This document shows, in pieces, positions 19,053 to 43,413 of a DNA stretch of 64,000 bases (within the stretch, counting starts at the first letter, position 1; each line of letters opens with the position of its first letter). Origin of the DNA: a virus (taxonomy: Duplodnaviria; Heunggongvirae; Uroviricota; Caudoviricetes); IMG/VR virus record IMGVR_UViG_2908567220_000002, positions 32,001 through 96,000 of that record; one strand, written 5' to 3'. The position numbers and the translations under genes were made by a program. The notes below the pieces were generated by a model. It had not been told where the DNA came from. It did not search any database and saw nothing but the letters and a program-made list of their open reading frames with translations.

Positions 19053-19175
19053 TGGCGCAATATACTCACTGAATTCCTGGATGTAGAACTGTGTGGTGAC
19101 GGTCTTCCAGCCATTCGGCTCCTGCTGTATCGAAGCATACCAGGCTATTTCAATATCGCTATGCTGCGGCAGCAT
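18906..19175 (-). pseudogene. tfa: tail fibre assembly protein Tfa, C-terminal fragment
   Basis: 89 aa ORF ending ...[28 protein letters not shown]; lacks Tfa N-terminal half. Confidence 0.55.
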
Positions 19176-19231
19176 TTAACCCCTTGTAATTCATCGCCAT
19201 AATTGATTTAATTCACAAATAAAACTATAAC

Positions 19232-19900
19232 ATGGTGAAATCAATGAAAAAAAACACAGATGATGGGGCTAAAATTTACACACCACTTACCCTAAAGCTT
19301 TATGACTGGTGGGTTTTGGGAGTATCAAATCGGCTTGCATGGGGATGTCCTACAAAGGAACACCTTCTTCCACACTTTCTGGAACATGTAGGTAACAACC
19401 ATCTGGATATTGGTGTTGGAACTGGGTTTTACCTTACTCACGTACCTGAGAGTAGTCTGATATCTTTAATGGATTTGAACGAAGCTAGCCTGAACGCGGC
19501 ATCTACAAGGGCTGGGGAATCAAAAATTAAACATAAAATTAGCCATGATGTTTTTGAACCTTATCCCGCGGCGTTACATGGTCAATTTGATTCCATTTCC
19601 ATGTTTTACCTTCTTCACTGCCTGCCTGGAAATATATCTACAAAAAGCTGTGTAATACGCAATGCGGCGCAGGCCTTAACTGACGATGGAACTCTATACG
19701 GAGCCACAATTCTTGGCGATGGAGTTGTGCACAATAGCTTCGGTCAAAAACTGATGCGCATTTACAATCAGAAAGGCATCTTTTCAAACACAAAAGATTC
19801 CGAAGAAGGCTTAACACATATACTCTCAGAGCATTTCGAGAATGTTAAAACCAAGGTTCAAGGTACTGTAGTAATGTTTTCCGCTTCAGGGAAAAAATAG
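19232..19900 (+). CDS. class I SAM-dependent methyltransferase
   Basis: 222 aa; motif I LDIGVGTGFY, acidic post-I LMDLNE, motif II-like DSISMFYLLHCLP; lies between duplicated tfa fragments. Confidence 0.7.
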   Translation: MVKSMKKNTDDGAKIYTPLTLKLYDWWVLGVSNRLAWGCPTKEHLLPHFLEHVGNNHLDIGVGTGFYLTHVPESSLISLMDLNEASLNAASTRAGESKIKHKISHDVFEPYPAALHGQFDSISMFYLLHCLPGNISTKSCVIRNAAQALTDDGTLYGATILGDGVVHNSFGQKLMRIYNQKGIFSNTKDSEEGLTHILSEHFENVKTKVQGTVVMFSASGKK

Positions 19901-19904
19901 CATC

Positions 19905-20087
19905 CAACCGCAGCACGTTCTTGCTTAAGACGTGCTGCGGCATAATCCCAATGATTACTCCCTGACAGGATTTGCAGGCCACTCAATATCAGGTGCAGTT
20001 GATGTATCAACACGGTTCAGCAACACCCGATACTTTTTCCAGGCTTCCAGCAATGAGGTTTCTTCCTCCGTTGCGATTTCCAGCTCA
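19905..20087. repeat. direct repeat copy 2 (tfa 3-prime end plus terminator hairpin)
   Basis: matches 18855..19052; contains CAGCACGTtcttgcttaagACGTGCTG hairpin with T-run on minus strand. Confidence 0.6.
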
Positions 20088-20089
20088 AC
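19955..20089 (-). pseudogene. tfa: tfa 3-prime fragment without start codon
   Basis: in-frame minus-strand translation ...[44 protein letters not shown] directly after stf stop, no initiator Met. Confidence 0.5.
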
Positions 20090-20137
20090 AACAGTCTGAA
20101 CGTACCGGGAACAGCCTCCTTCAGAGCTTGAAGGATA

Positions 20138-23100
20138 TCAATGTTCGCTTCCTGTTAACTGCCGGACAAGTGCAACCAGTTCGCTTACCTGATTTTCCAG
20201 AGTGCTGATCCGGGTGTCTGCTGTTGCCAGATTTTCACGTAGCGTTGTGTTTTCCTCTTCCAGCGCGGTAACGCGATCATCTGTTTCACGGGCGACCTGA
20301 ACAAGTAAACCCGTCACGGCGGCGTAGTCAACATTAAGATAGCGCGTTTCTTCGCGTAGCTCGTTGCCGTCAACGGTCGGGCCTTGCAACTCTTCACCAT
20401 AATGAGTAAACGATCCCACAGCTTCTGGTATCGCCTCCATTACTTCCTGTGCAATAACGCCAGCATAAGGCATCCCGTTTTCCCTGAGCGTGTAGGTGTA
20501 TCCGTTCATTTTACGGATTGCTTTCGTCGCGTCGCTGATAACGAGAATATCGTCTTTAAGGTCGCGGTCTGATGACTGATTCAGCGTTGTGCAATTAATA
20601 GCGCCATTTACATCAAACAACTGGCCTGCTGACGTTTTTTGCGCATAAAACAGATACGCAGCAGACGTTCCAACCTCAAAAACGTTTTGTCGAGTACTGG
20701 AACCCCACACCCTGACAGAAAACGGCAGTTCTGCATTGCCTGAGTTCTGTAAAACAAAACGATTACCAGTCCCTGATTGCTTTGTAAGGGTTAAATCAAC
20801 GGTTGAGTTAACCTCATTCTTGTTGATAGTGAGCGCCTGCGCTGTAGCCCCGTTAACAGCACCTGTTTTGAGTTGAACCGCGCCGTCATTACCATTTAAC
20901 AGTATCTCAGCTCCGCTAAAGAAATTTTTTAGCGACAGCATCTTACTTACGCCGACTGATGAACCCAACGCCCACGCGAGAGAATTACCGGTGCTATCAA
21001 ACCCACGTACAAAGCAATCCATTTTGCTATAGTCTGACGTGCTTCCAAGGACATCAATTCGCCCTCCGCCAGATTTTACCGGACTAGATGTGGTTAACGA
21101 CCTGACAGTTATATCCTGATTCCATCCGGAAACAACAACCTGACTCCACGCTGTCCAGTTTCCATTAACAACAAAGCGAACGTATATACGTTTTGTGTCG
21201 CTGTTAATCAGCGTTTGCATGTTCGCATAATCTGAATCCCTAACCTTACGAGTCGACTCTACACGGAGCAAAAAGTTACCGGTTACACCGTCAGGCTTGT
21301 TGGTGATATTTGCACCACCTCCAGAGGATGGACAACTATAGTATTTAACCGCCCCGGCATCTGACCTGATGGTCAGGTTGTTAAGATCAACCTTCTGGCC
21401 GCCAATGTTTTCAGGCTCGATGGCTCCTGCTATCCCGGCACTGAACGTAGCAGCGGCTGAAAACGCTGTCGTACCTTTGAAAGCCAGTTGACCACCAATC
21501 GTTAATCCCTTGTCGAGTTTCGCTTGCGTGATCAATTTGCTGTTTTGTTTCTGATCAGGACTCTCGCCAAAAGCCAGATCCCCATTAGTATCAATTCCAA
21601 GATACTTTTGGTTCACGTTGTCTAACTTAAACCCAATGGACACATTTTCAGAAGAACCGGAACGCGTTAAAACCAACGGCGTGTGCTGTACTCCATAGAT
21701 GCTGAGCGTAGTTGCCGATGAGTCAGTGTCGGTATTTGCAATCTCAATCGTTCTGCTTTTAATTTTATACGCTACTGTGAGATCACGGACTTCAACCCTC
21801 CCGTCGTGACGAACAACAAGATCCCCTCCTGATGTCCCCCCTGCTGTCTTTGCCCTGATGCGAACTTCGCCAAGCGAATCAGTGTTAGGACCAGCATAGA
21901 TTATGCCGCGCTCTGTGTTATCGCCAGTATAAAACCGCAAAGCGGTGACTCCACTGTCTGCCCGCAGGAAGACTGACGGTGTACCTTTTTTGATTGTCAA
22001 GTCACCGGTCATTGTATCGCCGGTTTTTTTTACCTGCGCATCGTTCGTTACGTTGCCAAGTCCAACATCCGATTTCGACGGCTTGTTTGCCGAGCCGTAT
22101 AGCTCATTGACGCTAAAAGTCCCGTTGTTAAGCCGGGCATCGGTGCCGGCATAGATCTTAATCTTCGCGGTTGAGTAGTCGATATTGATCGCTGACCACG
22201 TATCGCCGCACCGCGAGAATATACCAGAACCGTGGCTATAAATGGTCGCCGTGCTTCCGGTCGGCTTATCACCGCGCCAGAAATGACCACCTTTGTCACG
22301 CAGAGCTTTTAAGATCTCTACATCGCTCATCTTGCCGTTTGTTGATATCCCGCTACCGCCAAGACCGAAAGCGCCTGTAAGCATAGCATTAGAAAGACCC
22401 AAATCTGCTTTAGTCGGCTTGTTTAACTGGTCGTAAATCCTTACAACGGGGCTTTCAACATATCCAGAAGGCGCGGCGGTTTGCTTAACAAATCCGTCTG
22501 GAATGTATAATTCCGTGCGTGCCGTCTGCGCCAGTACCGCAACCTTTGCGCCGTTGATAAATGCGCGCTGGAAGGCCCAAACCTCAATAAAGCCATCACC
22601 TTTAACCAGGCCGTAACGCATCTGGTTGTTATCGGTCAGCCCGGTTGACCCTAAGCGGCGTATACTCAGATGACGAGAAACATTATCCGCACTAAGCAAA
22701 GAAGGCATACCGCGCGCCGAGATCTCGATAAAGTCAATGTTTCCGTAAGGGGAGCCGTAGTTACCAGCGTTAGTAACCATTAGCGTTACATGGCAATTGC
22801 CGCTTCCGGGATCGGAAAGTTTCGCGATCTTTATGTAAAAAGACTCATTACCAGTAACAACGGGCCAATCGTATTGCGTCATCGGGCTGACGAGTCCCCC
22901 GACCTTGTCGAGATATTCTTTCGCCTTGTTCTCTGACGCTTTAGCGTTGGTTTCGCTGACCTTTGCTGCTGCCTCACTATTTTTCGCGTTGGTTTCTGAT
23001 TTTTTGGCTGCTGTCGCGGAGTTTGCCGATGCAGTTTGTGAGTCTGCTGCCGCCTGTGCGCTGTTATCCGCATTCGTCTCAGACGTTTTTGCGGCCTTCG

Positions 23101-23917
23101 CGGAATTTCCTGCCGCCGTTGCCGAGGAAGCTGCACTACTGGCACTTGATGATGCGTTCGTTTCTGATGATTTCGCTGCCTCTTTTGAGGCCGCCGCATC
23201 CCGGGATGAGGTGGCAGCTTCTGACGCTTTCGTGGTCGCGGTGGATGCAGAAGTGGCTGCAGATTTTTGTGACGCTGCAGCATTCGTTTCTGACGTTTTC
23301 GCCGCACCGGCACTGGTGGCTGCCGCGCTTTTTGAAGACTCTGCGGCGGCAGCACTTTTTAATGCTTCAGTGGCCTTTGTTGATGCCGTTCCTGCGCTGG
23401 AAAAAGCCTCCTGAGCCGACGTCGCGGCCTGTCCGGCTGACGTTCTGGCTGCGCGTGCTGAGTCTGCAGCATCAGTCGCATGGGTTGCCGCCTCACGGGC
23501 TGATGTGCCGGCATCGCTGGCTGACTTCTTCGCGGCTGCCGTGTTCTGTGCCACTGCGGACGCGTTACGCGCCACCTCTGCCACCATCAGTTCAAAGCGG
23601 CGCAGTGCCTCCGGACGGGCATCATCCTCCGTCATGGCACCGAGAAAATCATTCAGCGTACCCGGTTGTGAGTCTTCATACACGGTGATGGTCCCGGCAT
23701 GCGATGGCGGGAAGCCTTCCACCAACAGAATAACGCTGTACTGACCGTACTCAACGTCCATGCTGTAACGCCCTGCTTCATCCGGATTTTCAGATGCCAC
23801 CGTGTTCACCACCACCGTGGTGCTGTTACGTTTTGCTTTCAGCTGGATTGTGCAGTTCTGTACCGGTTTACCTGCACCGTCTTTCAGTACACCTGAAATC
23901 TTTACTGCCATATTCAC
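20138..23917 (-). CDS. stf: side tail fibre protein with C-terminal intramolecular chaperone (S74-like) domain
   Basis: 1259 aa; N-terminus MAVKISGVLKDGAGKPVQNCTIQLKA... matches lambda Stf; Ala/Ser-rich repeats; C-terminal DLKDDI...NGYTYTLRENG... chaperone-like region. Confidence 0.85.
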   Translation of the reverse strand: MNMAVKISGVLKDGAGKPVQNCTIQLKAKRNSTTVVVNTVASENPDEAGRYSMDVEYGQYSVILLVEGFPPSHAGTITVYEDSQPGTLNDFLGAMTEDDARPEALRRFELMVAEVARNASAVAQNTAAAKKSASDAGTSAREAATHATDAADSARAARTSAGQAATSAQEAFSSAGTASTKATEALKSAAAAESSKSAAATSAGAAKTSETNAAASQKSAATSASTATTKASEAATSSRDAAASKEAAKSSETNASSSASSAASSATAAGNSAKAAKTSETNADNSAQAAADSQTASANSATAAKKSETNAKNSEAAAKVSETNAKASENKAKEYLDKVGGLVSPMTQYDWPVVTGNESFYIKIAKLSDPGSGNCHVTLMVTNAGNYGSPYGNIDFIEISARGMPSLLSADNVSRHLSIRRLGSTGLTDNNQMRYGLVKGDGFIEVWAFQRAFINGAKVAVLAQTARTELYIPDGFVKQTAAPSGYVESPVVRIYDQLNKPTKADLGLSNAMLTGAFGLGGSGISTNGKMSDVEILKALRDKGGHFWRGDKPTGSTATIYSHGSGIFSRCGDTWSAINIDYSTAKIKIYAGTDARLNNGTFSVNELYGSANKPSKSDVGLGNVTNDAQVKKTGDTMTGDLTIKKGTPSVFLRADSGVTALRFYTGDNTERGIIYAGPNTDSLGEVRIRAKTAGGTSGGDLVVRHDGRVEVRDLTVAYKIKSRTIEIANTDTDSSATTLSIYGVQHTPLVLTRSGSSENVSIGFKLDNVNQKYLGIDTNGDLAFGESPDQKQNSKLITQAKLDKGLTIGGQLAFKGTTAFSAAATFSAGIAGAIEPENIGGQKVDLNNLTIRSDAGAVKYYSCPSSGGGANITNKPDGVTGNFLLRVESTRKVRDSDYANMQTLINSDTKRIYVRFVVNGNWTAWSQVVVSGWNQDITVRSLTTSSPVKSGGGRIDVLGSTSDYSKMDCFVRGFDSTGNSLAWALGSSVGVSKMLSLKNFFSGAEILLNGNDGAVQLKTGAVNGATAQALTINKNEVNSTVDLTLTKQSGTGNRFVLQNSGNAELPFSVRVWGSSTRQNVFEVGTSAAYLFYAQKTSAGQLFDVNGAINCTTLNQSSDRDLKDDILVISDATKAIRKMNGYTYTLRENGMPYAGVIAQEVMEAIPEAVGSFTHYGEELQGPTVDGNELREETRYLNVDYAAVTGLLVQVARETDDRVTALEEENTTLRENLATADTRISTLENQVSELVALVRQLTGSEH

Positions 23918-24643: not shown

Positions 24644-27600
24644 TCAGCTAATCGTGATACCTGCTGTGGATTTCTTCATCACCACAACCAGCAAATCACT
24701 GATACTGGCTGTGGGATACCAGTCATTTACCAGCCACGCTGATACCGAAAACTCCAGCGTCATGTGACCGCGACCAGCAGGCATATCAATAACACCTGTA
24801 TAAACCAGCGTATTATCCAGCGCGGTACGGTTATAAATTTCAGCACCGTTTTTCTTCACTATCAGGCGGCATGACGAATAAATATCGTTATTCTCCCGCT
24901 CATGTTTAGCGCCACGAAACGCCACCGCGGGAATAACAATCTGCCGGTCAAACGGCTGATCGTCATAAACCCTGACGGTAATGGTCCCTGATGGCCACCG
25001 CTCCGGTGCACGGGAGTCCCGGGGGAAAGCTTTGCCCACTGTTTTAACGAGATCGCCTTCAATCTGGTTCGCAGACAGTTTTCCCAGAACCCGACAGTTT
25101 TCATTTATCGTGACATTGTTGAGCGTCCCGGCGTTCGCATTCACACTGCCACTGATATCCGCATTTTTCGCCGTCAGTCGCCCGTCCGGTGTCAGGGAAA
25201 ATGCCGGTGGATTTCCACCGCTGGTAATGGTGGGGGCCGTCAGGCGTTTCAGGAACACGTCGTTCATGAATATCTGATCGCCCTGACCAACAAACATCGG
25301 TTTTGTGTTGCCATTCGCAGGATTAACCATCGCAATCCTGTCCGCCGCCAGCAGCACCTGACTCTGCATGCCGTCAGGGGTGTTCTCAATACCGGCACCA
25401 ATACCCGCGATATAAAGGCGTCCGTCCTGCATCTGCTGCAGCTTCACAGCCCACATGCTGTTCAGGTTATTATTTGTATCAACCTGAACCTTCTGTATCT
25501 GCTGAATTGCCGCACTCTGGTCTTCCAGTTTCTTATTGACGGTCTGCGTGATTTCATTGCTGACATCCGTAATGGACGTCCTGATTTCAGCCAGGTCAGG
25601 CGCAAGCTGACCGTTATCAATCTGCGTCCACAGCTCCTGAGCCAGATGGGTTTTCCCTATCTCGCCTTTGAAAAAATCCAGATAGCCGGATGCGTCATCA
25701 CTCGGCTGACCAACAGCCTCCACGAATGCCGATTTGCCAACGGTGTTCACACTGCGAACGTAAAAATAATAATTATGGCCCGGTTTGATATTGATACTGG
25801 CGGCTATCCAGTACAACGCCGTACCAAGATAGCGTGCTGTGGTTTCAACCTGCCTGATATCCGCAATCCGCTTTTCCGAGAACCAGAACTCAAACTGTAC
25901 CGTCGGATCATAAACCGCAAGATGCGGCGTGGCGGTTATCTGAAAATAGCCCGGCGTCAGCTCAATCCGCGACGGCGCTGCCGGTGCGGCAATCCGGAAC
26001 GATACCGACGCCGGATCGCCCTGCTGCCCCCACGCATTTACTGCCCGGACTGTCAGCCTGTAGTTCCCCAGAGCCAGTTGTGTGAAGCGGTAAGTGGTTT
26101 CCGTCGTCCGGGCCGTGCTGACCAGCCGCTCACTGCCGTCATCCGCTGCCACGGTCAGGCGAAGCAGGAAGCTCACGCCCTTCACCACCTTCGGCGTGTC
26201 CCAGCGGGCCAGCACCTGGTATTCCCCGCTGTCTGCGGTGACTTCTGCGGTCAGATGCTGCACTGCTGGCGGCGTGACACCATTCACCGTGCCGCTCTGG
26301 TCGCCGTCAAAGTGCGCCCCGTTATCCACGATGGCCTCTTTTTCCGGTACATGCTGCACGGCGGTGATGGCATACGTGCCGTCATCGTTCTCACGGATAC
26401 TCACGCAGCGGAACAGGCGCTGGCGCAGCGTCGGCAGCTTCAGCCCCCATACGCTGTATCCGGCAACGCCGTCAGGAACACGGCTCACTTTTACCTTCAC
26501 GCCGTCGGTGACGGACTGGACCTCCACGCCGACCGGATTGCCACTTCCGTCAACCAGGCTTATCAGCGTGGTACCGGAGGATGGCAGCGTGATTTCACGG
26601 TCGAGCGTCAGCGTCCGGGTCTGGCTGTTCACCGCCAGCACGCGCCCGCCGGTGCTGATACCGGCATAGTCATCATCGCAGATTTCAATGACATCGCCCG
26701 GTACATGGCGAAGCCCTTCAGCACCCACGCTGAAGTCCACGGTCTGCGTTTCCAGCAGCTCCGTTTTAATCAGCCACAGCCCGGCGCGGTGTGCCTGCCC
26801 CCGGCTGGTACAGCCAAAGGCATCCATCTTCGTGACGTTACGACCGTAACGGGCAATGGCCTGCGAGTCCTCCACAAGCTCTGTTGCCGTCTCCCAGCCG
26901 TTATCCGGGTCAATCCAGTTCACTTCAACGGCATTATGGCGGTCTTTCAGGGCGCTGAAGCTGTAGCGGAATGGTGCGCCATCATCCGGCATCACCACAT
27001 TACTGCGGTTATAGGTCCACACCTTATCCGATGGTCGGTCCTGCACGAACGTCAGCGTCTGCCCGTTCCATACCGGCATACAGCGCATCGCCGAGCAGAA
27101 ATCACTGAGCACATCCCACGCCTTACGTTGTGTGGTCAGGTACGCATTACAGGTGATGCGCGGCTCCGTACCGCCAAAGCCGTCCGGCACCGACTGGTCA
27201 CAATGCTGGCCGATGACATACAGCGCCCATTTGTCCACATCCGCCGCACCAAGACGTTTCCCCATGCCGTAGCGCGGATGGGTCAGCATATCCCACAGAC
27301 ACCAGGCCATGTTGTTGCTGTATGCTGGCTTAAACGTTCCGTCCCAGATACCGCTGTATTGCCGCGTCTGCGGGTTATAGTTCGACGGCACCTGCAGAAT
27401 GCGCCCGTGCAGATGATAATTACGGCTCACCTGCTGGCTGCCGAACTGCTCCGAATCCACCTGCACGCCGACCAGTGCCGTGTTCGGGTAGCACTGTTTC
27501 ACATCGATGATTTCGGTGTATGACGACCAGAGCGTTTTGTTCTGCAGCTGGTCTGTGGTGCTGTCCGGCGTCATCCTGCGCATCCGGATATTAAACGGGC

Positions 27601-28123
27601 GCGGCGGCAGGTTACCCACCACCACCGAGGCCAGATACTGCGAGGTGGTTTTGCCCTTAATGGTGATGTCTTTTTCCGTCACCCAGCCACCATTACGCTG
27701 GATCTGAACCAGCAGGCGGACTTCCGACGGATTCCTGTCCCCCTTTGAGGTGGTTTCCACCAGTGCCTGCACGCCGAAGGTAAAACGCAGTCGGTCAATG
27801 TTTGCCGACGTGATGGTCCGGGTGATCGGCGTGTCGTATTTCACTTCCGTACCCAGCACCGTCTCGGAGCCGGAGGATTCAAATCCCTCCGGCGGTGTCT
27901 GCTCCTGCTCACCGGCCCGGAACACCACCGTGACGCCGGAGATGTTGGTATTCCCCTCACTGTCCAGCACCGGCGTACTGTTCAGCAGCACGCTTTTTAA
28001 TCCATCCACCGGACCTTCAATCGGCCCTTCGCTGATGGCATCGATCACACTCAGCAACTGCGTGGACTTCAGGTTGTCCTTCGCTTCGCGCGGAGTATGC
28101 CCCTTACTGCTGCCTTTACCCAT
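24644..28123 (-). CDS. J: tail tip host specificity protein J
   Basis: 1159 aa, N-terminus [24 protein letters not shown]..., lambda J synteny. Confidence 0.9.
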
Positions 28124-28182
28124 TCGTCACGCTCCATAAACGACAAAACCGCCCGCAGGCGGTTTCACATAAACGTTTTTCA

Positions 28183-28830
28183 TCAGCGACCAATCACCAC
28201 AACCTGACCACCATCCCCTTCGTCTGCCGTGCTGATCTCCTGAGAGACCACCTGCGACCCCACGCGCATTTCACCGTACAGAACGGGCAGAACATTGCCC
28301 TGGGCAACCATGTTATCCAGTGAGGAGAAATAGGTGTTCTGTTTGCCGTTATCTGTACTTGCTGCCGTGGGCGTCCTGGCTTTCGGTGCCAGCATCTGCG
28401 CCACTCCGCCAAGGATCATACTGGCCCCCGCAGCATACATGCCCGATAAAGCCGCAGCTCCCAGCCAGCCTGCAGGGTTCCACCACGCCACTGCAATCAG
28501 CGCCGCACCCAGCACCGCCTGAAACACACCGCCACTTTTTGCTCCCGCCAGACGCGGCACGATGTGGATCACGGCACCATTTGCCAGCGGCTCATTAAGA
28601 CGGGCAGACAATTCGGTTTCACCTGCATCACGCCCGGCAATCCGTATCTGATACCAGCCCTCATTCAGTTTCTGACGAAACACCGGGAGCTGTGTGGCCA
28701 GTGCGCGGATGGCTTCAGCCCCCGTTTTCACACGAAGGTCGATGCGGCGGCCAAATCGTTGCAAATCCCCGTAAAGGCAGATGCGTGCCATTCCCGGTGA
28801 CGCCAGAGGGAGTGTGTGCGTCGCTGCCAT
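28183..28830 (-). CDS. I: tail assembly protein I
   Basis: 215 aa, lambda I synteny and similarity. Confidence 0.8.
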   Translation of the reverse strand: MAATHTLPLASPGMARICLYGDLQRFGRRIDLRVKTGAEAIRALATQLPVFRQKLNEGWYQIRIAGRDAGETELSARLNEPLANGAVIHIVPRLAGAKSGGVFQAVLGAALIAVAWWNPAGWLGAAALSGMYAAGASMILGGVAQMLAPKARTPTAASTDNGKQNTYFSSLDNMVAQGNVLPVLYGEMRVGSQVVSQEISTADEGDGGQVVVIGR

Positions 28831-29471
28831 TTGTCGGTGTACCTCTCTCGTTTGCTCAGTTGTTCAGGAATATGGTGCAGCAGCTCGCCGTCACCACAGT
28901 AAATGGCGGCATGATTCGGCACCGATGAACCAAAGCAGCACAGCAGCACATCGCCCGGTTGTGCTGATGACAACGGCACCTGATACAGCCCTGTGGCCTC
29001 CAGATTATCCAGATAGAGATTCTGACCGTGACGCCACCAGTCATCCCCGCGATGAAAATCCGGCATCTCAATCCCCGCCAGATGATAAGCATCCCGGAAC
29101 AGCGTGTAACAGTCCGTCACTCCGTGCTCAAAGCGCCGCCCGGTGAGATGCGGCACACAGCGGAACTTATGAATCGTCCCCCGGCAAACCAGCCACCACG
29201 GCAAATCACTCTGCACCTGCAGCCGCCGGTCGGCCTCACTCAGCCAGGGCAGACCACCGGGGTGGCTGTGGACCAGCGCCACAATCTCACCCTGCATTTC
29301 TGCCCGCAGCCAGTCCTCCGGCGACATCCGGAAATACGCCTCCGGCTCACCGGAGATATTCACGCAGGGAAAATATCTTTCCCCTTCCGGCGTTCTCACC
29401 ACGAAGCCGCACGACTCCGCTGGCGCACATCGCCGGGCGTGCGCCAGAATCGCTGATTCTGTCTGTGTCAT
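28728..29471 (-). CDS. K: tail assembly protein K (NlpC/P60-like)
   Basis: 247 aa, lambda K synteny; overlaps I start as in lambda. Confidence 0.8.
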   Translation of the reverse strand: MTQTESAILAHARRCAPAESCGFVVRTPEGERYFPCVNISGEPEAYFRMSPEDWLRAEMQGEIVALVHSHPGGLPWLSEADRRLQVQSDLPWWLVCRGTIHKFRCVPHLTGRRFEHGVTDCYTLFRDAYHLAGIEMPDFHRGDDWWRHGQNLYLDNLEATGLYQVPLSSAQPGDVLLCCFGSSVPNHAAIYCGDGELLHHIPEQLSKRERYTDKWQRRTHSLWRHREWHASAFTGICNDLAAASTFV

Positions 29472-29476
29472 GGGAT

Positions 29477-30175
29477 TTACTGCGAAAGTTTGTTAATGGA
29501 AAGGAAGCCGCCAAAGTTGCCGACGTTATTGCGAAACTTACAGCCGCTCAGGCATTTGCTGCATTTATCCTTCGTGATATCGGACGTCGGCTGGTCATAT
29601 TCATCCGCGACAGCCGGACCGCTATAACCGCACTCGTCACCGCGATAGGTCCAGGTGCAGGTGTTGGCCAGCATGATACGTCCCGGAAAAACAGCGCCAT
29701 CCGTTTCCGTCGGCGTGGACAGTACAAAGGAGGCACTCACCGCGCTCAGTTCGCTGCACTGCTCAATGCGCCAGCGGCTGATCACCTCCTGCTCCGGATC
29801 GGCGTAACTGTTTCCGTTGACGAAGTTCACCGCATCCAGAAAACGGGCGTAAACCTTACGCCGGACCACCGTTCCGCCGACCAGACTCTGCATATCTTCC
29901 GCCATCCCGGTGACCATACCGTACAGGTTAGAAACCGTCAGCGTGGGGCGCGTACTGGTGCCTTTGCCATTCAGTTCAAAACCGCTCCCCTGAATGGGAT
30001 ACGGCTGATACTGTCGCCCCTGCCAGGTGACCGGCTCACCTTTTTCGTTCTGCTCATTACAGAAAAAATAACGTTCTCCACCGACCTCTGTCAGGTCGAT
30101 TTCCCAGAGCACCACGCTGGCCGACTGCTCCGCACGGGTGCATTCATTCAGTGTTTCCTGCCGGATATCCTGCAT
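29477..30175 (-). CDS. L: minor tail protein L
   Basis: 232 aa, lambda L synteny and similarity. Confidence 0.85.
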   Translation of the reverse strand: MQDIRQETLNECTRAEQSASVVLWEIDLTEVGGERYFFCNEQNEKGEPVTWQGRQYQPYPIQGSGFELNGKGTSTRPTLTVSNLYGMVTGMAEDMQSLVGGTVVRRKVYARFLDAVNFVNGNSYADPEQEVISRWRIEQCSELSAVSASFVLSTPTETDGAVFPGRIMLANTCTWTYRGDECGYSGPAVADEYDQPTSDITKDKCSKCLSGCKFRNNVGNFGGFLSINKLSQ

Positions 30176-30504
30176 CAGTTCACCACCTGTTTAAACTCTG
30201 CGCTGAACCCAACACGCAACATACTGACCTGCGACGACCATTTTGCGCAGGTCACCTTTATCTGCCTGTAACCATAAGGCGGCGTCCACAGAAAGGCCTT
30301 CCAGCCCCCGTGCTCAGCCAGAAACGACTCCAGCGCCGTGGCCTCCTCACGGGAGACAGACAGCGTCACGCTGTACGTTTTCAGGTCAGCGTTCAGCCCG
30401 GCAGGCGCACGCTGGGAATAGCCATCACCAAAGCGCACCTCCCTGACGGAAGGAGCCGATGTCACATCCATCCCGGGTTTCACTTTCCAGCGGAAGGTTT
30501 TCAT
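30175..30504 (-). CDS. M: minor tail protein M
   Basis: 109 aa, lambda M synteny. Confidence 0.85.
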   Translation of the reverse strand: MKTFRWKVKPGMDVTSAPSVREVRFGDGYSQRAPAGLNADLKTYSVTLSVSREEATALESFLAEHGGWKAFLWTPPYGYRQIKVTCAKWSSQVSMLRVGFSAEFKQVVN

Positions 30505-33062
30505 CGTCCACCTCCGGAGAACAGACCACCATCGCGCATCTGTGCCTGGATTTCATCACGGGCACCCTTGCGGGCCATGTCATACACCGCCTTCATCATC
30601 TGTGGACCTGGCAGACCATTCGTACCGTCGTTCTGAATCACCACGTTGTTGTTCTGCTCAAACCTGATACCCTCTGAACGCCGCATTTGCGCCGGACTTC
30701 CGGTGCCACCGACATAACCGCCGGTGGCATAGCCGCGCATCAGCCGGTAGAGATTTCCCACGCCAATCCGGCTGGTTGCCTCCTTCGTGAAGACAAATTC
30801 ACCACGGTGAACAATCCCCGCTGGCTCATATTTGCCGCCGGTTCCCGTAAATCCTCCGGTTGCAAAATGGAGTTTCGCCGCAGCGGCCTGAATGGCTGTA
30901 CCGCCTGACGCGGATGCGCCGCCACCAACAGCCCCGCCAATAGCGCTGCCGATACTCCCGACAATCCCCACCATTGCCTGCTTAAGCAGAATTTCTGTCA
31001 TCATGGACAGCACGGAACGGGTGAAGCTGCGCCAGTTCTGTTCACTGCCGGTCAGCATCGCCGCCATATTCTGCGCAATACCATCAAAGGTCTGCGTGGC
31101 AGCACTTTTAACCTGCGACATACTGTCCGTGGCACTCTCTTCCCACTCACTCCAGCCTGACCTGAGGCCTGCCATCCAGCTCCCGCGAAGCTGGTCTTCA
31201 GCCGCCCAGGTCTTTTTCTGCTCTGACATGACGCTATTCAGCGCCAGCGGATTATCGCCATACTGTTCCTTCAGGCGCTGTTCCGTGGCGTCCCGCGCTG
31301 CCTGCCGGTCAGTCAGCCCCCGGTTTTTCGCCTCAATGGCTGCCCGTTTTGCCCGTTGCTGCTGTGCGAATTTATCCGCCTGCTGCGCCAGCGCGTTCAG
31401 GTGCTCCTGATACGTGACCTTATCGCCAAGTGCAGCCAGCTGGCGTTTGTACTCCAGCGTCTCATCTTTATGCGCCAGCAGGGATTTCTCCTGTGCGGAC
31501 AGCTGGCGACGTTGCGCCGCCTCCTCCAGTACCGCGAACTGACTTTCTGCCTTCCACAAATCCCGGCGCTGCTGGCTGATTTTCTCATTCGCTCCGGCAT
31601 GCTTCTCCAGCGTCCGGAGTTCTGCCTGAAGCGTCAGCAGGGCAGCATGAGCACTGTCTTCCTGACGATCGCCCGCAGACACCTTCACGCCGGACTGTTT
31701 CGGCTTTTTCAGCGTCGCTTCATAATCCTTTTTCGCCGCCGCCATCAGCGTGTTGTAATCCGCCTGCAGGATTTTCCCGTCTTTCAGTGCCTTGTTCAGT
31801 TCTTCCTGACGGGCGGTATATTTCTCCAGCGGCGTCTGCAGCCGTTCGTAAGCCTTCTGCGCCTCTTCGGTATATTTCAGCCGTGACGCTTCGGTATCGC
31901 TCTGCTGCTGCGCATTTTTGTCCTGTTGAGTCTGCTGCTCAGCCTTCTTTCGGGCGGCTTCAAGCGCAAGACGGGCCTTTTCACGATCATCCCAGTAACG
32001 CGCCCGCGCTTCATCGTTAACAAAATAATCATCCTTGCGCAGATTCCAGATGTCGTCTGCTTTCTTAAACGCAGCCTCTGCCTTAATCAGCATCTCCTGC
32101 GCGGTATCAGGACGACCAATATCCAGCACCGCATCCCACATGGATTTGAATGCCCGCGCAGTCCTGTCTGCCCAGGTCTCCAGCGTGCCCATGTTCTCTT
32201 TCAGGCGGCGGGTCTGGTCATCAAACCCTTTCGTTGCGGCCTCGTTCGCCGCCTGCAATGCCCCGGCTTCATCGCCGGAACGCTGCAACTGAGCAACATA
32301 CGCAATCTGCTCCGCCGTCACGTTATGGAACTGGCGTGCCATCGCCGTCAGCCCCGACGTCGGGTCTGTGGTCAGCTTCCCGAAGGCTTCAGCGACCTTG
32401 TCCACCTCCACGCCGGATGCAGAGGAGAAACGCGCCACACTCTGGCTGATGGACGCAATCTGAGCCTCACCGCTTACCCCCGCCTTAACCAGTGCGCTGA
32501 GTGACTCGCTGGTCTGGTTAAACGTCAGCCCTGCCGCCTGCCCGGCTCTGGACAGGACCAGCATACGATCTGCCGTCAGTCCCGCCTGATTGCCGGAAAG
32601 GACCAGCGTTTTATTGAAATTGGACAGGGTTGAGTCACCCTGATACCAGGCATACGCCAGCGCACCGGTCGCCACCGCCAGCGAAGTGATACCAACCATC
32701 GGCAGGGTGATCGCACCGGTAAGCCCCCTGAACATGGGGATCATCCCGCCGAAGGAGTCCTTCACCTGACCACCCTGTTGCAGCAGGATGAGCCACGGAT
32801 TCTGCCCCCCTGCAAGCTGCGTGGCCACGTCGGTGAACTGCGCAGGCAGCATACGCATGGCAGCTTTATACTGCCCGACGGAAATCCCCGCTTTCTGTGC
32901 AGCCAGCGCCTGCCGGTTCATTGACTGTTCAACGACTGCCGCTGTTTTTTTCGCATCACTTTCCGTACCGGAAAAATGACGCCTGACTCTGGCCATCTGC
33001 TCGTCAAATCTGGCCGCATCCAGACTTAAATCAACGACCAGATCGCCTACCGGTTCAGCCAT
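30501..33062 (-). CDS. H: tail tape measure protein H
   Basis: 853 aa, coiled-coil rich, lambda H synteny. Confidence 0.85.
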   Translation of the reverse strand: MAEPVGDLVVDLSLDAARFDEQMARVRRHFSGTESDAKKTAAVVEQSMNRQALAAQKAGISVGQYKAAMRMLPAQFTDVATQLAGGQNPWLILLQQGGQVKDSFGGMIPMFRGLTGAITLPMVGITSLAVATGALAYAWYQGDSTLSNFNKTLVLSGNQAGLTADRMLVLSRAGQAAGLTFNQTSESLSALVKAGVSGEAQIASISQSVARFSSASGVEVDKVAEAFGKLTTDPTSGLTAMARQFHNVTAEQIAYVAQLQRSGDEAGALQAANEAATKGFDDQTRRLKENMGTLETWADRTARAFKSMWDAVLDIGRPDTAQEMLIKAEAAFKKADDIWNLRKDDYFVNDEARARYWDDREKARLALEAARKKAEQQTQQDKNAQQQSDTEASRLKYTEEAQKAYERLQTPLEKYTARQEELNKALKDGKILQADYNTLMAAAKKDYEATLKKPKQSGVKVSAGDRQEDSAHAALLTLQAELRTLEKHAGANEKISQQRRDLWKAESQFAVLEEAAQRRQLSAQEKSLLAHKDETLEYKRQLAALGDKVTYQEHLNALAQQADKFAQQQRAKRAAIEAKNRGLTDRQAARDATEQRLKEQYGDNPLALNSVMSEQKKTWAAEDQLRGSWMAGLRSGWSEWEESATDSMSQVKSAATQTFDGIAQNMAAMLTGSEQNWRSFTRSVLSMMTEILLKQAMVGIVGSIGSAIGGAVGGGASASGGTAIQAAAAKLHFATGGFTGTGGKYEPAGIVHRGEFVFTKEATSRIGVGNLYRLMRGYATGGYVGGTGSPAQMRRSEGIRFEQNNNVVIQNDGTNGLPGPQMMKAVYDMARKGARDEIQAQMRDGGLFSGGGR

Positions 33063-33489
33063 ACCGGACTCCTCCTGCGATCCCTTCTGATACTGTCATC
33101 AGTATTACGTCATCCTCCGTCATGCCCGCCACATCCGGGGAAGCGGGGATAACTTCATTCCCGTCCGGGTCAAAGCGGACGCCTCCGGCAAGCCCTGCCG
33201 CTTTCTGCATCAGCACATCATCTTCAGGCTCTTCGTCAGCCTCACACCGGTTCAGCAGACTGAAATCCAGCGGATGCATATCCGGATCGCTGAAAAACAG
33301 GCTGAGTACGGTGTACGTCAGCCCGGAAAAGTGCATATCCAGCAGAACATCATGAAAATAATGGGTACTGTAAAAGCGGTGCCAGTCGGCATACTCCGTG
33401 GATGACATCCCGGCAAGCATGGCGCGCCAGTCGGGTCGCCCCATCTCACGCGCCAGTTTCAGGGCAAAACTCAGCTCACCGTCGAACAC
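33055..33489 (-). CDS. T: T segment of tail assembly chaperone GT (made by -1 frameshift from G)
   Basis: 144 aa ORF in -1 frame relative to G, beginning at slippery site. Confidence 0.6.
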   Translation of the reverse strand: MFDGELSFALKLAREMGRPDWRAMLAGMSSTEYADWHRFYSTHYFHDVLLDMHFSGLTYTVLSLFFSDPDMHPLDFSLLNRCEADEEPEDDVLMQKAAGLAGGVRFDPDGNEVIPASPDVAGMTEDDVILMTVSEGIAGGVRYG

Positions 33490-33893
33490 TTTCCCGCAGA
33501 AACAGGCTCTGCTGGCCCGGCGTCATCTGCCTGTTCAGGTGCATCATTCACAACAAACTCAGACATACCGGACAGACGCATTACCACGTTTTCAGCCTGA
33601 GCAATTGCCTCCGTGGGCCAGGTGGTAAGCACTTCCTGCTCAATCTGCGTAATGGCTTCATTCATGGACGGCAGCTTTGTCTTCTGCGGATGGCTATGCC
33701 ACAGGGACATCGCCACCAGAAACGCCCCGCCTCTGATAAGATCCTCTACAGACACCTGCAGGTTGCCGCTGGATTCAGCCTTTTTTTCCTGCTCTTTCAA
33801 CCAGGCAAGATGCTCAATACGCTGCAGGGCTGACAGTTCAGAAAGCGTGACGGTCACGCCGTTATGTTCAAATGATTCGGTTTTCAGGAACAT
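33471..33893 (-). CDS. G: tail assembly chaperone G
   Basis: 140 aa, lambda G synteny. Confidence 0.8.
   Translation of the reverse strand: MFLKTESFEHNGVTVTLSELSALQRIEHLAWLKEQEKKAESSGNLQVSVEDLIRGGAFLVAMSLWHSHPQKTKLPSMNEAITQIEQEVLTTWPTEAIAQAENVVMRLSGMSEFVVNDAPEQADDAGPAEPVSAGKCSTVS
33489..33495 (-). other. programmed -1 ribosomal frameshift slippery heptamer GGGAAAG
   Basis: minus-strand GGGAAAG a few codons before G stop; frame arithmetic puts T in -1 frame. Confidence 0.55.
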
Positions 33894-33908
33894 CGCTGAC
33901 TCTCCGGA

Positions 33909-34679
33909 TTAACTGTCGGTGACGGTGATTCCTGCAACCACAGCAAGTTCACCATTACCGGATACAACCGGAATGTTGACCTTGCCTGCAGCAACACCTT
34001 TCACGGTGATGGTCATACCACTGACCGACACGGTGGCTTTTGTTTTATCCGCAGACACCGCACGGAAGCTCTTGTCGGTTGCGCCTTCCGGCTGGAATGC
34101 CACGGTCAGCGTGATGCTCCGCCCTTTCACCACCGAGGAGCTGGCAGGCGTAACGGTCATGCCGGTTGCCGCCGTCACCGTACTGCGATCTTCTGCCATT
34201 GACGGACGGCCCACATTGGTGACCTTCACCGTACGGGTGATCACTTCCTTCGCCGTCACCGCCTTACCGATACTGCTGACCCAGCCACGGAACACATCGA
34301 CCGTGCCGTTCGGGAAGCGGATTTTATAGGCACGGGTATCACCTTCATTAAACCACGCCAGCAGCGCCTGCTGCCCCTGCTCTCCGGGCATCCACGCCAG
34401 CGTGAAGCTGGTATCTCCGGCGGATTTCTGCCCCTGCCCGGTCGCGGTCCAGTCCGCATCTTCATCATCGAGATAACTGTCGTCATAGGACTCAGCGGTC
34501 AGTTCGCCGGGCGTCAGGTCTTTAACTTTTGCCAGACGCGACCAGTCAACGTCTGAAAGCGGGTTCGCATAAGGGTCACCGCTCCCCTTATAAACCCACA
34601 GGGTGGTCCCGGCACCTTTCACCGGCATTACAGGATTTGGTACAGGCATAGCGTCCTCACATTTCATAGGTAATGACAT
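33909..34679 (-). CDS. V: major tail protein V
   Basis: 256 aa, lambda V synteny with C-terminal Ig-like region. Confidence 0.85.
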
Positions 34680-35052
34680 AAGTCAGATCGGCTGAACTCC
34701 ACAGGCCCGCATCATCGTCGCGCCGGTAGTCATAGCCACTGGCCACCATACTGGTGATCAAATCTGACAGTGCCGGGATATCGCTCATCACCGGATAAAT
34801 CCGGGACTCCATCCACGAATCCAGCTCTGAATCCGGCACCTGAGCAGGCAGGAAAACTTCAATATGCAGCTCCGCCTGCCAGGTATCGCTGTCCAGCTCT
34901 TCGCCCGTGTATTCAGCGCCGGTGAGATAAACGGCAATTGCCGGAAAATCTTCCTCATCAAAAACAGCGGGGCGACCATCAAAAAGCGTCGCCCCGGCGT
35001 CATGCTTCTCCAGTGCATCCAGTACGGCTGCACGGAGTTCAGTATGTTTCAT
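34657..35052 (-). CDS. U: minor tail protein U
   Basis: 131 aa, lambda U synteny. Confidence 0.8.
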
Positions 35053-35627
35053 CGCTTTATTACCATTCTCAGTTGATGCTGCAGCGCATAGCCCAGCTCT
35101 TTCGGAAGACGCTCACGCCGTATCCGCTCAATATTCTGTTTAAACGCCGTGGTAAGCGGCACCGCCATCGGGATTTTCACCACATCAATGGGGTAACGGT
35201 TTTTCCCGGCCACACGCTGCATGACATGCCACCGGCCATTTTTCAGTTGCTGAATAAACGCGCCGGGAATACGACGGTTACCCACCACAAGCACGCTGCC
35301 GCCACCTTTCAGGGATGAACGCTGCCCCTTTTTACGACGCCTGCGGCGGGACAGGACAACCCGCGCATTACCCAGCCTGATTACGGGCAAATCCCCCCGG
35401 TTAACTTTGATTCTGGCCTGCGGATTTTTGACCGTGGCCCTTTTCAGCCTGGCCCTTTCCTTTACCAGTTTCCGGCGTACCTTTGTCTCACGGGCAACCT
35501 GTGACGCAGACTGCGATATCGCGGATGACGCAACGCGGTTAATGGCTATTGCGGCGGCACCAGGCACCGCCGTTTTGCTGATACGGCTGAGGTTTTCAAC
35601 GGCCTGCTCAAGACCTTTTATGGCCAT
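35049..35627 (-). CDS. Z: tail completion protein Z
   Basis: 192 aa, lambda Z synteny. Confidence 0.8.
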   Translation of the reverse strand: MAIKGLEQAVENLSRISKTAVPGAAAIAINRVASSAISQSASQVARETKVRRKLVKERARLKRATVKNPQARIKVNRGDLPVIRLGNARVVLSRRRRRKKGQRSSLKGGGSVLVVGNRRIPGAFIQQLKNGRWHVMQRVAGKNRYPIDVVKIPMAVPLTTAFKQNIERIRRERLPKELGYALQHQLRMVIKR

Positions 35628-35638
35628 ACATCCCCCTT

Positions 35639-35992
35639 TCAGCGGCGACGGTTAACGGCAGGCGGTACGCCCCGTCCAAGCCAGAGATGACAACTTCCGC
35701 CATCATCCGGCGAAACCCGATCTACCCAGAAATTTTCCTCACCGATGGTCAGCGTGTCTCCACGCCGCAGCTGCCGCACCTCATCAGTCCGGACAAACAG
35801 GGACGGGCTGGAGCCTTCAACGCGCACGCCCTGTCCGGCATAGCTGATATTTTCAGGGTCATCAAAAACACCACGTATCACAGCACCGGACTGCTCACCG
35901 GATGTCATGGTGGCTGACGTTCCCATGTACCCGCGTATCGTTTCATCAGCGCGAGCAATGGCAGCATCGAACAGGTTATCGAAATCAGCCAC
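35639..35992 (-). CDS. FII: head-tail joining protein FII
   Basis: 117 aa, lambda FII synteny. Confidence 0.8.
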   Translation of the reverse strand: MADFDNLFDAAIARADETIRGYMGTSATMTSGEQSGAVIRGVFDDPENISYAGQGVRVEGSSPSLFVRTDEVRQLRRGDTLTIGEENFWVDRVSPDDGGSCHLWLGRGVPPAVNRRR

Positions 35993-36003
35993 AGCGCCTC
36001 CCG

Positions 36004-36402
36004 TTATTGCATTCTGGCCAGGCCACGTTCTGTCATTTCGGCTGCCACACCGGCAGAGACACGAAACGCCGTTCCCGGCAGCACAAATGCCACAGGTTTA
36101 TCCCGCGTGGCGTGAAGTGCATCAGTATGCAGCGTCACCAGTGCCACGACCGTGACCAGTTCAGCCGTATCCTGAATCACGGTATCCGGCTGCGCTGATA
36201 CCACCTCATTTTCATGCCCGGTCAGCACATTTTCCCGGCTGAGAGGGGTGTCCTGACCGGCAGTTTCATCCGTGTCATCAAGCTCTTCTTCCAGCTCTGC
36301 CACACGAAGCGCCAGTTCTTCTTTCGTTCCCGTCAAACTGACATCGCGGTTCAGTTGCTCACCCAGCTCCTGAAGACGGGCAATCAGTTCATCTTTCGTC
36401 AT
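36004..36402 (-). CDS. FI: DNA packaging protein FI
   Basis: starts MTKDELIARLQELGEQLN as lambda FI; track ORF extends 13 codons upstream. Confidence 0.8.
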   Translation of the reverse strand: MTKDELIARLQELGEQLNRDVSLTGTKEELALRVAELEEELDDTDETAGQDTPLSRENVLTGHENEVVSAQPDTVIQDTAELVTVVALVTLHTDALHATRDKPVAFVLPGTAFRVSAGVAAEMTERGLARMQ

Positions 36403-36443
36403 GAACTCCTCCACAGAGAGAAAATGGCCCCGAAGGGCCATGA

Positions 36444-37469
36444 TTACGCCAGTTGTACAGACACGAACTCATCAGGATCAGCCAGCAGCATCAGCGGTGC
36501 TGACTGAATCATGGTGAACTCACGCGCCGGATCGCCGGTGGTCACCCAGTTTTTCGGGTAACGGGCAGAGGCGTTAATGCCTTCGCGCTGTGCGTCCGCA
36601 TCCTGAATGCAGCCATAGGTGCGCAGACCGCGTGCCTGAGTGTTCCCCAGCACCATCGTGTTGTCCGGCAGGAAGTTCTTTTTGACGCCGTTTTCCACGT
36701 ACTGTCCGGAATACACGACGATGGCCACATCGCCATACATCCCCTTGTAGGACACCGCTTTGCCCAGGTCTTTCACCGCTGTCTCCAGCTCGGAATGAGA
36801 GCCGCGACGAGTATCCAGCTTCTCCTTGACGGCTTTGAAGGAACGGAACAGCGCCCAGCCTTTCGGATCAAACACGATGATATTCACCACTCCGCTGGCG
36901 TTCAGCGCGTAGGCTTCGATATCGTCGGTCGGGTCATACGTGGACTTGTCACGCTTGCTCCACTCCGTGCTGCCGGACTGCGTGATGTTGTTGGCCGCAC
37001 TGCGGCCCATATCCACCTCAACCGGATCGAAGGCTTCACCGGTCATGGTGTATTTGCCCTTAAGCACGGCAGAAACTGCCTGCATCTCTTCCACCTGGGC
37101 AATGGCCAGCTCTTCGTCACGCATGTTCTGCATGATGATGCGACGGCGACGGTAAGCCGGGTCCGCCAGATTCTGCGGATCTTCATCCGGCAGGCGACGC
37201 AGGGTCATCTGCGGATTCACTTCATGCTTGGGTTTGACATATCCCGGCGTAAATTCAGAGGTGGAGCCGCCACGGGAGCGGATAACCTCACCGGAAACAA
37301 TCGGCGAAACGTACAGCGCCATGTTTACCAGTCCCGGAATTTGTGAGAGATAGACTTTTTCCGTGGTGAAGGGATAGCTCTCACGGAAAAAGAGACGCAG
37401 AAACAGCGGATCAAACTTAAATTTCTGCTCATTTGCCGCCAGCAGCTGGGCGGTTGTGTACATCGACAT
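36444..37469 (-). CDS. E: major capsid protein E
   Basis: starts MSMYTTAQLLAANEQKFKFDP as lambda gpE; track ORF extends 9 codons upstream. Confidence 0.9.
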   Translation of the reverse strand: MSMYTTAQLLAANEQKFKFDPLFLRLFFRESYPFTTEKVYLSQIPGLVNMALYVSPIVSGEVIRSRGGSTSEFTPGYVKPKHEVNPQMTLRRLPDEDPQNLADPAYRRRRIIMQNMRDEELAIAQVEEMQAVSAVLKGKYTMTGEAFDPVEVDMGRSAANNITQSGSTEWSKRDKSTYDPTDDIEAYALNASGVVNIIVFDPKGWALFRSFKAVKEKLDTRRGSHSELETAVKDLGKAVSYKGMYGDVAIVVYSGQYVENGVKKNFLPDNTMVLGNTQARGLRTYGCIQDADAQREGINASARYPKNWVTTGDPAREFTMIQSAPLMLLADPDEFVSVQLA

Positions 37470-37524
37470 AAAAAAATCCCGTAAAAAAAGCCGCACAGGC
37501 GGCCTTTAGTGATGAAGGGTCAGG

Positions 37525-37857
37525 TTAAACGATGCTGATTGCCGTTCCGGCAAACGCGGTCCGTTTTTTCGTCTCATCGCTGGCAGCCTTCGGCCAGAGC
37601 ACATCCTCATAACGGAACGTGCCGGACTTGTAGAACGTCAGCGTGGTGCTGGTCTGGTCAGCAGCAACAGCAAGAATGCCGACAGCAGCACCGTCGGTGG
37701 TGCCATCCCACGCAACCAGCTTACGGGTGGAGGTGTCCAGCATCAGCGGGGTCATTGCAGGCGCTTTCGCACTCAATCCGCCTGGCGCGGTTGCGGTATG
37801 AGCCGGGTCACTGTTGCCCAGCGGCTGGTAATGGGTAAAGGTTTCTTTGCTCGTCAT
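37525..37857 (-). CDS. D: head decoration protein D
   Basis: [27 protein letters not shown]... matches lambda gpD. Confidence 0.9.
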
Positions 37858-37866
37858 AAACATCCC

Positions 37867-39166
37867 TTACACTGGTGTGTTCAGCAAATCGTTAACGGCA
37901 TCAGATGCCGGGTTACCTGCAGCCAGCGGTGCCGGTGCCCCCTGCATCAGACGATCCAGCGCAGTGTCACTGCGCGCCTGTGCACTCTGTGGTGCTGCGG
38001 CCAGAATGCGGCGGGCCGTTTCCACGGTCATACCGGGGGTTTCTGCCAGCACGCGGGCCTGTTCTTCGCGTCCGTGAGCCTCCTCACAGTTGAGGATCCC
38101 CATAATGCGGCTGTTTTCTGCCGCAACCGCTGCGGTGATCTGCGCGTTCACGTCCGGCTGCGCCGCGCTGGCGTTCTCGCCCTCCGTCGCTGGCACCACG
38201 TCAGTAACGTCAGCCTGCGAAGCAGTGGCTGAAACAGTTGTTGATTGAGTCTCTTTGGTCATTCGCCCTCCTGAGAGACGGGATTTACGTGCATCCAGTG
38301 CATCACGCATGACGGTGATCGCATCGGTACTGTTAACAAGTTCATCAGCCAGTCCGGCATCAATGGCCTCCTGACCGCTGTACACTGCAGCCTCGGTATC
38401 CAGCACAGCCTGCACGGACAGGCCGGTATATGCCGACACCTTCTGTGCAAACATCCGGCGGGTTGCATCCATCCGGGACTGCAGTGTTTCCCGGACATCA
38501 TCCGGTAGATGGCTGTAGGGGTTGCCATCCACCTTATGGCTGCCGCTGTAAATCAGCGTGATTTCCACGCCCTGTTTCTCCAGCGCAGCACCGTAATTAC
38601 TGTGAGCCATCATGACGCCGATGGAGCCTGTCCGGGCGGTCTGCGTGACCAGACGCCGGGAGGCGGCGCTGGCAAGCAGCTGACCTGCACTGCAGTTCAT
38701 GTCGTTGGCCAGCGCCCATACCGGTTTTATGTCTCGCACACGGGCGATGATGTCAGCACAGTCAAATGCTCCCGCCACCATCCCGCCCGGTGTGTCCATA
38801 TCCAGCAGAATGCCGTCCACCATCGGGTCGCTGGCAGCCTGTTGCAGACGGGCGATAATGCCGTTGTAACCGGTCATCCCCGAATACGGCTGCAGCGCCC
38901 GCGTCCGGCTGACCAGCGTGCCGGAAACCGGCAGCACGGCGATGCCGTTCATGACCTGATAACTGCGGGCCTGTCGTGGTCCGTCATCATCACCGGATAA
39001 CGCCAGCGTCGCGGGTGCCTCTCCGGCAGTCAGGCTGTCGCCGGACACCGCATCCGTCAGGCGACTGATCCCAAGCTGGCCTGCAAGCGCACAAAAGAAA
39101 ACCCGCGCATAGGCGGGTTCAAGCATCAGCGGCTCATTAAAAGCCATGCTGGCAATATGCGGGAGA

Positions 39167-39186
<20 letters not shown>
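37867..39186 (-). CDS. C: head maturation protease/scaffold C (S49 peptidase; Nu3 scaffold in frame in C-terminal part)
   Basis: matches lambda gpC from VTAELRNLPHIASMAFNEP; likely GTG start; track ORF 37867..39321 begins upstream. Confidence 0.85.
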
Positions 39187-42867
<3,681 letters not shown>

Positions 42868-42893
<26 letters not shown>

Positions 42894-43413
42894 TCAGCAA
42901 CCCCGGTATCAGTTCATCCAGCGCGGCTGCTTTGTTCATGGCTTTGATGATATCCCGTTTCAGGAAATCAACATGTCGGTTTTCCAGTTCCGGAAAACGC
43001 CGCTGTACCGAGAGAGGGATCCCGTCAAGAATACTGGCAATTTCACCTGCGATCCGTGACAGCACGAAAGTACAGAATGCGGTTTCCACCACCTCTGCGG
43101 AGTCTCTGGCATTCTTCAGCTCCTGTGCGTCGGCCTGCGCACGCGTAAGTCGATGGCGTTCGTACTCAATAGTCCCAGGCTGGAGATCTGCCTCACTGGC
43201 AGCCCTGTAATCCACAACCTCTTTACGGAGTTTTTCATTTTCGATATCAGCTTCCCTCTGCGCATACCACTGAATTGCCATGGCGGTATCAAATACAGAT
43301 TCAACGCCCTTACCACCTCCGGAGACGCAAGGGAGTCCCTGAGACTGCCAGCGTTCAATCGTTCGCGGATCCACGTTGAAAATTTCGGCAAGTTTCTTTT
43401 TATTAACCTTCAT
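42868..43413 (-). CDS. Nu1: terminase small subunit Nu1
   Basis: 181 aa, lambda Nu1-like N-terminal HTH. Confidence 0.85.

Follow-up and report, generated by a model that had tools for sequence, protein, structure and literature searches.

The window analysed here, a 64,000-nucleotide stretch of a Caudoviricetes record (IMG/VR IMGVR_UViG_2908567220_000002, positions 32,001 to 96,000), carries two overlapping open reading frames, the tail genes G and T, between V, the gene for the major tail tube protein, and H, the gene for the tape measure protein, all of them on the minus strand. The features of the locus, from 5′ to 3′ on that strand, are the following.

33909..34649, minus strand: gene V, major tail tube protein, immediately upstream of G (PF16461, 2.7e-70; 96% identity to lambda V over 246/246 residues)
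33902..33905, minus strand: GGAG, a Shine-Dalgarno-like motif of putative function, 8 nt 5′ of the G ATG (sequence read)
33471..33893, minus strand: gene G, encoding the tail assembly chaperone gpG in the zero frame; 140 codons and a TGA stop (ORF, PF06894, TIGR01674)
33055..33893, minus strand: coding span of the predicted 279-aa gpGT fusion (conceptual join at the heptamer)
33474..33522, minus strand: the sole stretch in which the G frame and the T frame are both open (stop positions)
33489..33495, minus strand: slippery heptamer G_GGA_AAG, read as a −1 programmed ribosomal frameshift site (position and phase computed)
33055..33495, minus strand: T frame, in the −1 register with respect to G; 146 codons between the start of the heptamer and the TGA at 33057..33055 (frame arithmetic, PF06223, TIGR01715)
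33471..33473, minus strand: G stop codon TGA, which shifted ribosomes would bypass (sequence read)
33421..33454, minus strand: hairpin of 13 bp predicted at a distance of 34 nt on the 3′ side of the heptamer; it probably does not belong to the signal (folding)
30501..33062, minus strand: gene H, tape measure protein, 853 aa (PF06791 and PF09718; 95.5% identity to lambda H over 853/853 residues)

The G and T genes within the tail module and the prophage

Taken as separate ORFs, G matches the Pfam family PF06894 (Phage_TAC_2, 1.6e-52) and T, conventionally started at the GTG at 33489 (33055-33489, minus strand, 144 aa), matches PF06223 (Phage_tail_T, minor tail protein T, 4.2e-14). The predicted fusion of the two hits the gpG equivalog TIGR01674 (phage_lambda_G) over residues 1-136 (1.7e-55, 186.7 bits against a cutoff of 74.45) and the gpT equivalog TIGR01715 (phage_lam_T) over residues 140-245 (5.5e-54, 181.2 bits against a cutoff of 77.35). 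Amino acid identity to the lambda proteins is 81% for gpG (140/140 residues aligned) and 97% for T, and 249 of the 279 residues of the predicted gpGT are identical to lambda gpGT joined likewise. A sequence search for a relative of the GT fusion in the PDB returned none. A central patch of gpG (approximately aa 26-60; G nt 76-180; window 33714-33818, minus strand) is hypervariable among 59 unique close relatives, in which T is almost invariant, and this patch may be a mosaic boundary or may co-vary with the tape measure protein.

The gene order is Z-U-V-G-T-H-M-L, as in lambda, with Z, U, and V upstream of the pair and H, M, and L downstream. In a tblastn comparison with the lambda proteins, all lambda genes from nu1 to J are matched end to end and in lambda order over 43413..24650 (minus strand). 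As in lambda, H starts (ATG at 33062) before T has ended, with 8 nt shared by the two genes. The mechanically called V ORF (33909-34679, minus strand) starts from an ATG at 34679, 10 codons upstream of the lambda-equivalent start at 34649; RefSeq, in annotating the closest genome, adopts the lambda-equivalent start for V.

The closest complete genome, NZ_AP022105.1, is collinear with the window only from approximately 18.2 kb onward and is 99.2% identical to it over window positions 28.6-49.1 kb. It carries the same prophage between an ompW 3′ fragment and an intact ompW, adjoining the trp-yciGFE region; in our record the prophage with G and T continues past the right end of the window. The left part of the window has another origin. 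Positions 1-18146 belong to a second lambdoid prophage, of which they hold the end that bears Q, the immunity region, and exo to int, including its integrase ORF (17016-18146, plus strand); these 18 kb match the Q-RusA-DUF968, cI/cro, and exo-xis-int regions of the reference prophage and are not host chromosome. At approximately 18190-18310, an att fragment derived from the 3′ end of ompW marks the place where this second prophage meets the tail-fibre end of the G/T prophage, and the window thus seems to run across two tandem prophages at the ompW site. In every complete E. coli genome, coverage of window positions 1-20000 stays below 80%.

Some further observations concern the same prophage. 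In NZ_AP022105.1, its genes H, Z, C (S49 peptidase), and B (portal) are annotated as frameshifted pseudogenes, and in the window H, Z, C, and B match full-length lambda proteins (30501-33062, 35049-35627, 37870-40768); either the window copy of these genes is functional or the reference has assembly errors. An ORF of 222 aa on the plus strand (19232-19900) lies between two C-terminal fragments of the tail fibre assembly gene tfa (18909-19097 and 19958-20101, minus strand); in the closest genome it is annotated as a class I SAM-dependent methyltransferase, and it is probably a moron insertion. The adjacent side tail fibre ORF (20138-23917, minus strand, 1259 aa) has only its first ~290 residues in common with lambda Stf (orf-401), at 74% identity; the rest is unlike lambda Stf and includes a long, repetitive segment rich in Ala and Ser.

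Phase and frames of the slip site

Read directly as the reverse complement of 33471-33495, the minus strand from 33495 to 33471 is GGGAAAGTGTTCGACGGTGAGCTGA. The initial annotation had located GGGAAAG on the minus strand within this interval, a few codons before the G stop and with the T ORF downstream in the −1 frame, and our calculations agree on each point. Coordinates and strand are right, with the heptamer at 33495..33489; it starts at offset 398 of the ORF whose ATG lies at 33893 (398 mod 3 = 2), and the zero-frame codons across it are GCG GGA AAG, which is the canonical X_XXY_YYZ phasing. The few codons number exactly five sense codons (TGT TCG ACG GTG AGC), followed by the TGA at 33473..33471. 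The −1 frame runs from the heptamer as GGG AAA GTG TTC GAC and stays open for 146 codons up to the TGA at 33057..33055; on the 5′ side of the heptamer it is shut by a TGA at 33525..33523 (minus strand). Since both frames are open only over 33522..33474, a productive shift must fall there. The in-phase X_XXY_YYZ heptamer lies within this overlap, five codons before the upstream TGA, and a scan of the whole G ORF found GGGAAAG only once. The predicted gpGT junction reads PVSAGK|VFDGELS, within the junction-spanning peptide ...EPVSAGKVFDGELSFALK.

Neither the motif nor the geometry is significant alone; the weight comes from homology, gene order, and conservation. The bare GGGAAAG occurs nine times on both strands of the window against 9.3 ± 3.4 in shuffles, that is, at chance frequency, and motif enrichment was rejected as evidence. 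The ORFs of at least 80 codons in the window contain 102 in-phase X_XXY_YYZ heptamers, 11 of them with a −1 frame continuing for at least 50 codons past the stop. Most of these 11 sites lie in spurious ORFs overlapping real genes, and we rejected the geometry as a specific detector.

The closest known system is lambda G/GT itself, in which the same G_GGA_AAG occupies nt 399-405 of a 140-codon G, followed by the same five codons and TGA; this heptamer is named as the lambda slip site in Table 1 of PMC3296357 and in PMC7618472. The fusion length of 279 aa, the V-G-T-H order, and the extent of the H/T overlap (8 nt) are also the same. Around the heptamer, 88 nt (33512..33425, minus strand; 17 nt on the 5′ side and 64 nt on the 3′ side) are nucleotide-identical to lambda, which bears out the earlier description of the site as an intact one of lambda type. 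In contrast, 61 of the 839 nt of the G-T region differ, with 53 of the differences in G (mostly nt 76-180) and 8 in T, and the element here is a prophage adjoining an ompW-derived att fragment.

Conservation and the downstream hairpin

A megablast search with the G-T region gave matches in 143 phage records and in 3709 of 5426 complete E. coli genomes. We compared 83 related loci, consisting of 80 IMG/VR loci, lambda, phage 21, and the closest E. coli genome, and in 82 of them the heptamer is in phase and starts at offset 398, which leaves 25 nt to the end of G. The heptamer is identical in lambda, phage 21, and the closest E. coli genome. The sole exception, L041 (IMGVR_UViG_2671180673_000015), has a premature TAG at G codon 34 and is without a usable G/T pair; this points to a prophage in decay.

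More distant relatives were chosen from the spread of tblastn matches. All nine diverse phages, with gpG identities of 29-81%, keep a phase-2 slip site ending in A_AAG near the G stop, and a −1 ORF of 112-154 codons follows in each distant relative. The heptamer is G_GGA_AAG in Stx2a_2499 (71% gpG identity), A_AAA_AAG in Stx1_1380 and Stx2_95 (42-45%), and G_GAA_AAG in mEp237, LLS, phi80, PhiR40_1, and Gifsy-2 (29-48%), so that A_AAG is the invariant element of the slip site across relatives. Among the phages with 38-71% gpG identity, the last base of the stop codon comes 18 nt after the end of the site; in PhiR40_1 and Gifsy-2 one codon separates site and stop. Phage 21, phi80, LLS, the Stx phages, and Gifsy-2 share with our prophage the same gene pair in the same place and a same-phase site with the A_AAG ending near the G stop, and where the heptamer differs among these lambdoid phages it is A_AAA_AAG or G_GAA_AAG. 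In the LLS and phi80 records the heptamers are marked as sites of −1 frameshifting and the coding sequences are joined, and the phage 21 record has a joined coding sequence named ‘GT frameshift product’.

Among the 59 unique close relatives, diversity is low over the whole T region, and local synonymous-site constraint at the slip site could not be shown. Local nucleotide constraint was rejected as evidence for a frameshift signal because the entire T region is nearly invariant.

Typical 3′ stimulators are separated from the slip site by a spacer of 5-9 nt (PMC5009743), and we found no stable structure starting 5-9 nt after the heptamer; the 131-nt fold is unremarkable (z = −1.58). The 13-bp hairpin farther downstream is also predicted in the G/T loci of lambda, phage 21, Stx, mEp237, LLS, and phi80. 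In an alignment of 11 diverse loci 87% of its cells are paired, with the hairpin broken in PhiR40_1 and Gifsy-2, and the covariation is weak, amounting to three single-sequence double changes in the 11 sequences. The arms consist of the A-R and R-A codons of a conserved T peptide, LAREMGRPDWRAM (L-A-R-E-x-G-R-P-D-W-R-A-M). Because the arms coincide with conserved T codons, protein constraint probably explains the hairpin, which would then be merely a by-product of this peptide. We therefore rejected it as an established part of the signal: the 34-nt spacing is far beyond 5-9 nt, T codons form the arms, covariation is weak, and two phages break the structure. That the predicted hairpin is a selected RNA element tuning the G:GT ratio seems to us very unlikely; if it were selected, it might pause a leading ribosome so that the next one is queued at the slip site, or it might affect mRNA stability. 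Levin et al. are said to have found in 1993 that a classical downstream structure is not required.

Mechanism, alternative explanations and annotation

The −1 frameshift in lambda G/GT goes back to Levin, Hendrix & Casjens (1993) and Xu, Hendrix & Duda (2004, 2013, 2014); the experimental demonstration is attributed in PMC5009743 to Levin 1993 and Xu 2013/2014, and the frameshift is documented as well in Maynard 2012 (PMC3296357). A low-level −1 shift ties the output of gpGT to that of gpG, and the molar G:GT ratio of about 30:1 is crucial to tail assembly; G binds H, T binds V, and neither gpG nor gpGT is present in the virion (PMC5009743). In E. coli, in which a single tRNA-Lys (mnm5s2UUU) decodes both AAA and AAG, G_GGA_AAG ranks with the heptamers that are highly prone to shifting (PMC5009743). 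Maynard et al. reported ~96% zero-frame reading at the lambda site, with hypomodification of tRNA-Lys U34 leading to more frameshifting and a lower phage yield and with thiolation modulating the ratio (PMC3296357); PMC7618472 summarises that work.

Applied to this locus, the lambda mechanism would run as follows. Most ribosomes on G would read GCG GGA AAG and five codons more and stop, giving the 140-aa chaperone gpG. A few, in lambda approximately 3.5-4% (about 1 in 25 to 30), would slip back one base with tRNA-Gly and tRNA-Lys (mnm5s2UUU) on GGA and AAG, the two tRNAs re-pairing in tandem to GGG and AAA. GTG would be read next and the T frame translated, yielding the 279-aa gpGT. As in lambda, the G portions of both proteins would coat the tape measure H, the T portion would recruit the tube protein V, and a G:GT ratio of about 30:1 would be needed for correct assembly of the tail. 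With an E. coli host and a site whose 88-nt context is identical to that of lambda, the same tandem slippage at a similar efficiency of a few percent is the best-supported expectation.

E. coli dnaX (A_AAA_AAG) differs in that a Shine-Dalgarno-like stimulator lies upstream and a stem-loop lies close by on the 3′ side, and its shift is far more frequent than that of lambda G/T, at about 50%. No Shine-Dalgarno-like element was seen just 5′ of the slip site in the sequence read here, and the efficiency expected for our prophage by analogy is only a few percent. What dnaX has in common with the present site is its reliance on the shift-prone tRNA-Lys at A_AAG (PMC5009743).

The sequence of the site, its phase, the two frames, homology, gene order, and conservation are all observed here, and we hold it to be close to certain that the locus is a lambda-type G/GT programmed −1 ribosomal frameshift in a lambdoid E. 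coli prophage. The initial annotation had reached the same reading, for which the G and T equivalog matches, the placement between V and H, the −1 frame, and the lambda-identical site all speak; GT would then be produced as in lambda. Slippage itself, its rate, and the chaperone roles are likewise carried over from lambda, and production of GT from this prophage, at whatever efficiency, would need late-gene expression.

Among the alternatives, we regard as unlikely, though worth weighing, that the signal is intact in a cryptic or non-inducible prophage, with GT never made in practice and the site kept only through recent acquisition. The presence of tfa only as C-terminal fragments, the rearrangement of the side-tail-fibre region around the methyltransferase insert, the tandem arrangement with another lambdoid prophage, and the pseudogenised Z, H, C, and B of the same prophage in the closest complete genome would all fit such a state. 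Yet nu1 to J are matched in the window by an unbroken alignment, the reference prophage can be aligned over the lysis, Q, replication, and repressor regions, and loss of side tail fibres is compatible with viability, since lambda PaPa is without functional ones.

It is highly improbable that T is made alone from the GTG at 33489, the heptamer being a coincidence. ORF callers do give a GTG-started T of 144 aa, and RefSeq lists T as a gene of its own in lambda and in E. coli genomes; however, GT is the product in the lambda work (Levin 1993, as reported in PMC5009743 and PMC3296357), and curated records contain joined coding sequences. The GTG itself is partly within the heptamer, and the sequence has no Shine-Dalgarno motif at a workable distance before it, whereas G has GGAG (33905..33902) and H has GGAGGAG, which together make independent initiation of T unlikely. 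In addition, the T frame of the distant relatives extends no farther than 4-20 codons upstream of the slip site, yet none of them has lost the site.

A frame change by RNA polymerase slippage, with one A lost from the mRNA, can practically be dismissed, as the run here has only three A's and transcriptional slippage normally needs much longer homopolymer runs. Similar two-product outputs do arise in this way in some systems (PMC5009743), but in lambda the ratio changes with the modification state of tRNA-Lys U34, which speaks for an event on the ribosome (PMC3296357).

The ribosomal frameshift signal is thus of the textbook lambda type, already known and with its mechanism worked out in lambda decades ago, and in one of thousands of lambdoid prophages it has little importance beyond annotation. 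For this prophage, it confirms that a complete lambda-type tail assembly module is kept, and the locus should be annotated as one joined G-T coding sequence, with ribosomal slippage at 33489-33495, in place of a separate T gene.
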